Part shown: positions 3,531 to 4,546 of the stretch, piece after piece | Layout of the letters: each line of letters starts with the position of its first letter | How positions within the stretch are numbered: the first letter of the stretch is position 1 | DNA from: a virus | Lineage: Duplodnaviria; Heunggongvirae; Uroviricota; Caudoviricetes | Direction: 5' to 3' (one strand) | DNA length: 50,378 nucleotides | Virus record (IMG/VR): IMGVR_UViG_2562617057_000009 | Coordinates: 1-50,378 of that record | Program-made: the position numbers and the translations under genes | Notes under the pieces: model-generated | What the model saw: only the letters and a program-made list of their open reading frames with translations | What the model was told of the DNA's origin: nothing | Databases searched by the model: none

Positions 3531-4361
3531 TTACTTAACCTGAATAAATGGTGTGTTGGCACCGCTGGTCATGTACTGCGGCAGTGTGCCGTTCCATTTA
3601 TTGATGGCTTCCAGCTCCATAACACCGGGGTTCTGGCGCAGAGCTTCACCGCGTAAACGAATTGCATCGGCTTCGGCCTGGGCTTTTGTGCGAATCGCAT
3701 CAGCCTGTCCGGCAGCTTCTGCACGCAGCATGTTGGCTTCTGCTTCGCGTTGTTTAACTTCCTGCTCGCGTTGCAGTGTTTTCTGGTTTGCCGTGACTTT
3801 GGCGTTAATGCTGTCGATAACGGTTGGTGGGTACTCTGGCTTACCCACATATGAGAGGCTCATTACCTGAATACCGATGGGTGTCATTTCTTCCTGGATG
3901 TCTTTTAGAGCGGCATCCAGTAATTCAGATTTACCGCCGTCAATAAATTTGTCGGTGGTCATTTTGCTGGCCAGCCGATTGAGTGCGTCGGCGATCTTCT
4001 GGCGCAGGTCGGTGTTGGTAATGTCATCCACGCCTTTGCGGTAAGTCTGAAACACCGTGGTAACTTTGGATGGATCAACTTTGTAGGCCACGCCGATGTG
4101 ATAGCCGATGGTTGTGCCGTCACTCATCTGGAAACTGAACGGTTCATCGTAGGTCTTCATTTGCTTGAAGGTCGGGAAAATGTAAACTTCAGTATTCCAG
4201 CCAGTCCAGTAGCGACCAACACCGACCACCTCACCGACACCTTTGTCGTCGCCCAGTTTGTTGACTTTGATACCCACATTACCTGGTTCAACGCGATCGC
4301 AACCTACAAGTCCGAAGACAGCCAGACTGACCGCGAAAACAAGCGCAATTGTTTTTTTCAT
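3531..4361 (-). CDS. SPFH/band-7 (prohibitin-like) lipoprotein
   Basis: Signal peptide with lipobox LVGC, SPFH-like core, Ala/Glu-rich coiled-coil C-terminus. Confidence 0.7.
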   Translation of the reverse strand: MKKTIALVFAVSLAVFGLVGCDRVEPGNVGIKVNKLGDDKGVGEVVGVGRYWTGWNTEVYIFPTFKQMKTYDEPFSFQMSDGTTIGYHIGVAYKVDPSKVTTVFQTYRKGVDDITNTDLRQKIADALNRLASKMTTDKFIDGGKSELLDAALKDIQEEMTPIGIQVMSLSYVGKPEYPPTVIDSINAKVTANQKTLQREQEVKQREAEANMLRAEAAGQADAIRTKAQAEADAIRLRGEALRQNPGVMELEAINKWNGTLPQYMTSGANTPFIQVK

Positions 4362-4546
4362 TTTTCCCTCCCGGGGAAAGAAAGACCCTTATAAATGGCA
4401 TAAATGCAGGGCGGGGTCAGACACGCCAGAGCAAAGCCAGAAATCACTGCTACCGTATCCTTCATTGATATGAGGGCCGGAACGATTAATCCGTAAATAC
4501 ATGCGATAATTGCCAGTGATATAACTATTCTGAAATAAATGTTCAT
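4358..4546 (-). CDS. small two-helix membrane protein, translationally coupled to the SPFH gene
   Basis: 62 aa, two hydrophobic segments; stop overlaps the SPFH start. Confidence 0.5.
   Translation of the reverse strand: MNIYFRIVISLAIIACIYGLIVPALISMKDTVAVISGFALACLTPPCIYAIYKGLSFPGREK

Follow-up and report, generated by a model that had tools for sequence, protein, structure and literature searches.

A two-gene phage membrane module encoding an SPFH lipoprotein and a small hairpin protein in the early-left operon of an Escherichia coli prophage

We analysed a stretch of viral DNA of 50,378 nucleotides (IMG/VR record IMGVR_UViG_2562617057_000009, hereafter the window), which represents a lambdoid prophage of Escherichia coli inserted between mlrA (yehV) and btsS and which over positions 3400..4700 is identical (100%) to E. 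coli CFSAN029787. Within its leftward operon, with an S24-type repressor gene (7145..7840) and a helix-turn-helix gene upstream and xis and int downstream, lie two overlapping genes encoding a membrane protein of 62 amino acids (aa) and a 276-aa lipoprotein of the SPFH (Band 7) family. This pair very probably represents, in prophage form, a two-gene membrane module that is conserved among phages and is the same as the gp19-gp20 pair of phage N4. The features of the cassette, in positions of the window, are the following.

4358..4546, minus strand: partner gene, 62 aa (open reading frame, ORF; phrog_1130 match)
3531..4361, minus strand: SPFH/Band-7 lipoprotein gene, 276 aa (ORF; Pfam Band_7 and phrog_200 matches)
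4358..4361, minus strand: ATGA stop/start overlap of the partner TGA with the SPFH ATG (translational coupling)
4550..4555: Shine-Dalgarno sequence AGGAGG of the partner gene
4366..4372: Shine-Dalgarno sequence GGGAGGG of the SPFH gene
4299..4361, minus strand: signal peptide, aa 1-20, and lipid-modified Cys21 (codon 4299..4301) with Asp at +2 (read from the sequence)
3735..4295, minus strand: SPFH (Band 7) domain, aa 23-209 (Pfam envelope; modelled as SPFH1 and SPFH2)
3633..3827, minus strand: long coiled-coil helix, aa 179-243, rich in Ala, Glu and Gln (DSSP on the model)
3534..3599, minus strand: C-terminal tail, aa 255-276, with the motif K-W-x-G-x-x-P (alignment)

The N-terminus of the SPFH protein, MKKTIALVFAVSLAVFGLVGC followed by DR, is a lipoprotein signal with the lipobox L-V-G-C ending in Cys21, and it satisfies the lipobox pattern [LVI][ASTVI][GAS]C (MKKTIALVFAVSLAVFGLVG-C21). 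Seven aligned distant homologues from phages all have Cys21, as do at least 90% of the rows of 25- and 30-sequence alignments, and all homologues from phages of Gram-negative bacteria that were inspected keep the lipobox. Residues 23-209 match Pfam Band_7 (PF01145) with E=6.3e-31 (108.2 bits against a cutoff of 23.6), and the protein matches phrog_200 with E=9.7e-115. An AlphaFold monomer model computed from the 25-sequence alignment, with a mean predicted local distance difference test score (pLDDT) of 78.7 (46 in a single-sequence run), comprises a β-rich SPFH1, an α/β SPFH2, a helix of 65 residues (179-243) aligned with the HflK coiled coil, then another, short helix and a tail modelled at low confidence. 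When the model was compared with the PDB by Foldseek, prohibitin, HflK, HflC and erlin were the top matches over the full length (E 3e-14 to 1e-12), followed by stomatin and flotillin (E values up to 1e-8), QmcA-YbbJ (8z5g) and the major vault protein; the viral structure matches were unnamed “Band 7” proteins of phages and giant viruses. The prohibitin, HflK/C and erlin families all face away from the cytoplasm, and so would the window protein. In the tail, residues K255, W256, G258 and P261 are invariant among the distant phage homologues; the tail resembles the cage-closing C-terminal segment of other SPFH proteins and might serve as a cap, this part of the model being of low confidence.

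The partner protein contains two hydrophobic helices with basic residues at both termini and is predicted to form an inner-membrane hairpin with both ends in the cytoplasm (N-in/C-in) and a short periplasmic loop, S-M-K-D-T. It matches phrog_1130 with E=1.9e-23. Such small ORFs are seldom called, and a protein word-index search found 28 close homologues; in addition, a hidden Markov model (HMM) was built from 16 partners and run on six-frame ORFs. The family carries the signature Y-x-x-h-h-P-x-h-h-S-x-x-(D/S)-(T/S)-x-x-h-x-x-G, in which Pro23 never varies and Ser27 and Gly37 hardly do. No Pfam match was obtained for the partner at E<=0.01, nor for the 16 family members at E<=1, and no PDB sequence matched it, YbbJ included. 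Thus the two products are as the original prediction had described them, an SPFH lipoprotein with a C-terminal coiled coil (Band_7 match, lipobox, modelled helix 179-243) and a translationally coupled two-helix membrane protein of 62 aa (ORF 4358..4546, ATGA overlap). The SPFH/NfeD relationship that it had proposed to look for did not emerge, as the OB-fold domain NfeD (PF01957) is absent from the partner, which at 62 aa is too short for such a domain and has no other Pfam or PDB match. Its statement that the operon lacks recognisable exo/bet/gam genes agrees with our family scans, which found no Exo, Bet/RecT/Erf or Gam family in the 10 ORFs scanned (2172..6998); in the RefSeq annotation of the near-identical CFSAN029787 prophage these genes are likewise unlisted.

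The assignment to the module of N4 rests on both proteins. N4 gp19 (membrane protein) and gp20 (lipoprotein) belong to the same PHROG families, 1130 and 200, as the window pair, and the N4/VEc25 proteins match phrog_1130 and phrog_200 just as the window proteins do. Gene order, stop/start overlap and lipobox are those of the window. The SPFH protein of the window is 62% identical to gp20 (tblastn; 67% over the mature part), and gp19 is recognised by the partner HMM with E=2e-16, yet shares 28% identity with the window partner.

The same gene pair was found in about 95 independent loci, a recurrence that excludes a chance arrangement. Among some 92 full-length loci of close relatives, the hairpin ORF stops at most a few bases from where the SPFH gene begins in all but three, one of which is interrupted by a contig end, and in the reverse test a Band_7 gene followed the partner homologue in 10 of 10 places. 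The 4-nt overlap of the two genes is kept in most related loci; SPFH genes of Salmonella and Serratia prophages (52% identity) retain an upstream ORF of 62-63 aa with this overlap. The partner HMM located a hairpin adjoining the SPFH gene in N4-like Pylas, N4/VEc25, SalP219, PHB09, a Pseudomonas phage and a Burkholderia phage, with weaker matches in PaP4, BroderSalsa, a crAss-like phage and phiEa104. Furthermore, the two proteins are naturally fused in 17 of the 150 best representative homologues, where the hairpin is followed by a linker, a signal-anchor with lipobox and the SPFH domain (P0176, P0181, P0188, P0193, P0196, P0197, P0204, P0206, P0208, P0211, P0218, P0226, P0233, P0254, P0261, P0271 and P0312); in one further representative, P0183, a partner-like segment is C-terminal instead. 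As Rosetta-stone evidence, the fusions argue that hairpin and SPFH protein act together, and their layout implies that the C-terminus of the hairpin is cytoplasmic and that the SPFH domain is periplasmic and attached to the inner membrane. Asp at +2 is an inner-membrane retention signal in E. coli lipoproteins; Asp22 occupies this position here and in most temperate enterobacterial copies, Tyr in N4, and Glu, Asn, Ser, Thr or Gly in other members. We therefore base the probable inner-membrane location of the complex on the fusions and the inner-membrane partner, rather than on Asp22. The two proteins have decoupled histories: relative to the window, P88 is 96.9% identical in the SPFH protein and 19.7% in the partner, and a Salmonella prophage 53.9% and 61.3%, respectively. 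It follows that recombination takes place inside the signal-peptide region, and any contact between hairpin and SPFH protein must therefore depend on a few conserved motif residues.

The promoter regions were inspected by a consensus scan, which placed the following elements at the head of the leftward operon.

7052..7080, minus strand: probable early-left (pL-like) promoter, TTGACA-17-TAATAT, 10/12 consensus (prediction)
7117..7133: terminator of the repressor gene, just upstream of the pL-like promoter (prediction)

On the strand of the cassette, no strong sigma-70 match other than the pL-like element occurs upstream, and the scan found no sigma-70-like promoter or intrinsic terminator flanking 3531..4546. 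In Enterobacter and Klebsiella prophages the ATG of the partner overlaps the stop codon of the upstream gene, which leaves no room for a promoter of its own. The GC fraction of the cassette (0.46-0.52) matches its surroundings, a compositional-island test being unremarkable. The cassette is thus not a moron in the strict sense, as neither a promoter and terminator of its own nor an atypical base composition was detected. Its placement in other phages is similar. P88 has it within the uninterrupted early operon that runs from cox to A, and P1-like phage-plasmids have it between trnT and trnI, in the exact tciABC slot of P1 and within the ban operon, the promoter of which overlaps the C1 operator Op72. 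In N4 the pair is located just after the RNA polymerase II genes, and in virulent phages the module stands among early and middle genes, with genes for replication and nucleotide metabolism around it. For the P1 slot we compared positions 2864..4897 of the P1-like phage-plasmid with 7150..8810 of canonical P1, where tciABC (TerB-like) carries the annotation tellurite/colicin resistance or cell-division inhibition. Judged from this arrangement, expression would probably be early and under repressor control, after infection or induction, and not constitutive in the lysogen. With early-operon placement and no detected promoter of its own, an exclusion gene expressed by the lysogen is not the obvious reading.

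A tblastn search found relatives of the SPFH gene in 837 of 50,697 phage records (about 1.7%), and the cassette was present in 571 of 5426 complete E. coli genomes (about 10%), in 424 chromosomal and 241 plasmid places. A HMMER scan of 1.84 billion cluster representatives gave 458 at E<=1e-30, and the family is among the 200 largest phage protein families. Carriers in four unrelated temperate lineages include lambdoid phages (phiP27, Fraca), the P2-like P88, a P1-like phage-plasmid (the P1 variant Punavirus P1 MH422554) and the SSU5-like phage-plasmid SSU5. In virulent phages, tblastn detected relatives in N4-like, rV5-like and Felix-O1-like phages, Bruynoghevirus and Otagovirus, as well as in phiCbK, crAss-like phages, Lak megaphages, Kayvirus, Enterococcus herelleviruses and haloviruses. 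The family reaches viruses of Gram-positive bacteria and of archaea, and even giant viruses. Every context examined was a phage or prophage. DNA homology to phiP27 and Stx phages begins and ends at the cassette borders (3502..4550 of the window), which marks the cassette as an exchangeable mosaic unit, and homology to P2-like and P1-like phages is limited to the coding part of the mature SPFH protein (3565..4310). In some strains (E. coli VL40, CFIAFB20180540) the cassette is broken by insertion sequences, IS600 and members of the IS3 family, and it must therefore be dispensable for the host. Within this common phage module, PHROG 1130 plus PHROG 200, the window copy is nothing out of the ordinary. 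The original prediction had seen an accessory cassette rather than a housekeeping pair; this holds, given the exclusively phage and prophage contexts and the scores for the HflC and HflK families, which lie far below their cutoffs. It had also argued for an exclusion or membrane-perturbing role from the accessory slot of a lambdoid prophage, an argument that loses its force since the same module occurs in virulent phages (N4, rV5-like, Felix-O1-like). The function is a general phage one rather than a prophage-specific one.

Several observations concern the surroundings of the cassette. The integrase frame 75..1361 (minus strand) is split by an in-frame stop into 492..1361 and 75..485, the CFSAN029787 prophage having an intact gene of 1287 nt that differs at window position 494; with a broken integrase frame, the copy in the window may have lost excision. 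Two anti-repressor-like genes, 2738..3562 (minus strand) and 8659..9432 (plus strand), stand either side of the immunity region; their C-terminal 131 aa are 76% identical and their N-terminal domains unlike, that of 2738..3562 being ORF6N, and RefSeq labels the CFSAN029787 counterpart of 8659..9432 a Rha family regulator. A 72-aa ORF (4996..5214, minus strand) encodes a ParE-like toxin domain (Pfam PF24732, E=1.5e-17) and overlaps a 71-aa ORF (5186..5401, minus strand; phrog_340); the two may form a toxin-antitoxin-like pair within the early-left operon, and a ParE-like gene again adjoins the cassette in Enterobacter and Klebsiella prophages. The 189-aa ORF 2172..2741 (minus strand) bears the PHROG 3007 label “RusA-like resolvase” along with faint matches to the DNA polymerase III beta clamp; RefSeq names a homologue “beta clamp domain-containing protein”, in conflict with the RusA-like label. 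The 130-aa ORF 4607..4999 (minus strand; phrog_1886) is the immediate upstream neighbour of the cassette, both in the window and in many prophages of Enterobacterales. We rejected it as a third component, as the upstream neighbours differ in phiP27, P88, P1-like phages and N4.

How the module might work can be proposed from its parts. The 62-aa protein very probably lies in the inner membrane as an N-in/C-in hairpin, and the 276-aa protein is very probably exported and lipid-modified at Cys21. On the periplasmic side of this membrane the lipoprotein would oligomerise, in an arrangement organised together with the hairpin, and form a ring or cage like that of HflK/C, since SPFH1, SPFH2, coiled coil and C-terminal motif make up the architecture with which HflK/C, prohibitin and erlin build closed cages above a membrane patch. 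The products of the two coupled genes very probably act as one unit at the periplasmic face, and probably during lytic development. Such an assembly might fence or insulate the inner membrane of the infected cell against secondary genome entry or membrane damage, a possibility that we offer with low confidence. The benefit would be superinfection exclusion by early genes during lytic growth, of the T4 Imm/Sp type, and not lysogenic conversion. Known effectors of exclusion do include small proteins of the inner membrane and lipoproteins, namely T4 Imm/Sp, TP-J34 Ltp and T5 Llp. Taken together, identity, timing and outcome give a tentative explanation that is rather more likely to need revision than to stand as a whole. 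In N4, lysis inhibition depends on superinfection, and the exclusion system has been explicitly called uncharacterised (PMC12642591); if the cage account were true, this system would be gp19-gp20. That phages widely use an HflK/C-like cage, so far unrecognised, to shut the infected cell against further genome entry, with the N4 exclusion system that feeds lysis inhibition as one case, is speculative and on balance unlikely.

A number of points weigh against exclusion by a cage. The spontaneous rapid-lysis mutants of N4 include none that mapped to gp19 or gp20. Neither protein matched a defence model of PADLOC-DB 2.0 at E<=0.01, and neither matched the exclusion families of PHROG. Up to four copies per E. 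coli genome occur, in different prophages, and the carriers are not obviously mutually exclusive. The broad host range favours a generic membrane role over the block of one entry route. As the +2 residue is not conserved, the argument for inner-membrane retention through Asp fails family-wide. The promoter scan was a crude consensus search that a weak constitutive promoter could escape. Finally, in the literature we found no experiment on any family member, just remarks in genome announcements that the role is unclear.

Among the alternatives, the one that survives best is membrane maintenance, in which cage and hairpin would stabilise the inner membrane and the proton-motive force while phage membrane proteins accumulate, in parallel to flotillin or to SPFH systems of the YdjI-PspA type. 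The effect would be a longer productive infection, a tuned lysis timing or the blunting of depolarising abortive-infection effectors. The spread over phages of Gram-negative bacteria, Gram-positive bacteria and archaea fits such a receptor-independent role, as does the replacement of P1 tciABC, with its annotation of tellurite/colicin resistance or cell-division inhibition. Bacterial SPFH proteins are described as tying PspA to the membrane (PMC8581546). In Kayvirus, MbpV/MbpS lie in the lysis region between the endolysin gene and tgl (PMC7150955), but linkage to lysis genes is absent outside Kayvirus, and the rapid-lysis mutations of N4 miss gp19 and gp20. We consider this reading unlikely.

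A phage cage might alternatively join or replace the host HflK/C around FtsH and so alter access to substrates, candidates being CII/CIII-type regulators, holins and SecY. HflK and HflC are among the closest sequence and fold matches, and prohibitin and HflK/C, the top structural neighbours, partner with AAA proteases. Of the four E. coli SPFH proteins, HflK/C alone have the periplasm-facing topology, and the lambda early-left operon encodes the FtsH inhibitor CIII. The identity of 16-18% is low, however, with scores far under the equivalog cutoffs, and the module also occurs in virulent, P1-like and P2-like phages without a CII/FtsH switch. Relatives are even carried by haloarchaeal viruses, and archaea are not known to have FtsH. 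We hold mimicry of HflK/C to be quite unlikely, and a CII/FtsH role in the lysis-lysogeny decision was downgraded as main explanation, since the module is found in virulent and non-lambdoid phages as well.

Lysogenic conversion, whereby a lipoprotein made by the lysogen would alter the envelope or host interaction (serum resistance, adhesion, TLR2 stimulation), has a precedent in PM0222 of Pasteurella multocida, a prophage HflK/C-like SPFH protein detected in wild-type cells and outer-membrane vesicles; a deletion mutant was less resistant to serum, expressed less capsule and was less virulent (PMC9872710). Prophages of pathogenic E. coli, Stx phages included, commonly carry the cassette. The N- and C-termini of PM0222 as derived from primers (MMIKGVV..., ...QLPQK) are, however, unlike those of the PHROG 200 family, and the module occurs in strictly virulent phages and inside repressed early operons and is disrupted by insertion sequences in some strains, which makes this reading improbable. 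Lastly, a toxic or abortive-infection module, in which the hairpin would be a membrane-perturbing toxin (holin-like or type-I-toxin-like) that the SPFH cage restrains or triggers and that kills the cell upon infection, is highly improbable: the original prediction had suggested a membrane-perturbing role, small hydrophobic hairpins are often membrane toxins and Kayvirus MbpV has been noted as holin-like, but there is no PADLOC match, virulent phages gain nothing by aborting their own infection, the natural fusions join the two in one polypeptide and not as antagonists, and the conserved partner residues form a Pro/Ser/Gly loop motif with no pore-lining pattern.

The analysis adds that the hairpin is an obligate partner and is naturally fused to the SPFH protein in some homologues, and it contributes the topology, the wiring into early operons and the recognition of the pair as N4 gp19-gp20. 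As a fixed two-protein unit with a periplasmic SPFH domain and probable early lytic wiring, the module is directly testable.

Compared with known systems, HflK/HflC come closest in architecture: they share the layout of SPFH1, SPFH2 and coiled coil and likewise face the periplasm from the inner membrane. They are the best PDB and NCBIfam sequence matches and full-length fold matches, at 16-18% identity, and the equivalog models score well below their cutoffs (TIGR01932, 25.5 against 134.4 bits; TIGR01933, 22.8 against 159.4; PRK10930, 18.8 against 660). The anchoring differs as well: HflK and HflC each have their own transmembrane helix and form a K/C heteropair, whereas the window has a lipid, a separate hairpin and a single SPFH gene. 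In the SPFH-NfeD operons (QmcA-YbbJ, YqiK-YqiJ, FloT-YuaF, PH1511-PH1510) a small membrane-protein gene also stands immediately upstream of or beside the SPFH gene and is co-transcribed with it, but that partner carries NfeD with its OB-fold and the window partner is a two-helix hairpin; moreover, the SPFH domain is cytoplasmic in the E. coli SPFH-NfeD pairs and would be periplasmic here. T4 Imm/Sp, TP-J34 Ltp, T5 Llp and HK97 gp15 are small inner-membrane or lipid-anchored exclusion proteins acting at the envelope, and the resemblance to them is in function only; they have no SPFH domain, and no sequence or family relationship was detected. Kayvirus MbpS is also preceded by the gene of a small membrane protein, MbpV, but shows 24% identity and a transmembrane anchor, and MbpV has one transmembrane helix.

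The closest counterparts are other phage copies, all with the hairpin ORF directly upstream (phiP27, P88, SSU5 and the P1-like element). The mature SPFH protein of the window is 99% identical to that of phiP27 (L05, with an unannotated upstream ORF), 97% to that of P88 (gp11-gp12) and 96% to that of the P1-like element; SSU5-like copies, called “SPFH/band 7 protein” in SSU5, are 79% identical over the full length. Signal peptide and partner vary by phage lineage, the partner being 20-24% identical in P88 and the P1-like element. In older records the SPFH gene is mislabelled “serine protease”. Directly upstream of gp19-gp20 in N4 lies gp18 (5014..5328), annotated “superinfection exclusion” (phrog_1510) for its likeness to P22 gp17; we take P22 gp17 to be an anti-exclusion factor, and the label of gp18 may mislead. 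No homologue of gp18 adjoins the cassette in the window. Unlike the window prophage, N4 is virulent and has Tyr, not Asp, after the lipid-bearing Cys, and the match to gp19-gp20 gives the pair a family name without explaining its role. Since N4 carries the same pair, however, this model phage could reveal what a virus-encoded SPFH cage does.

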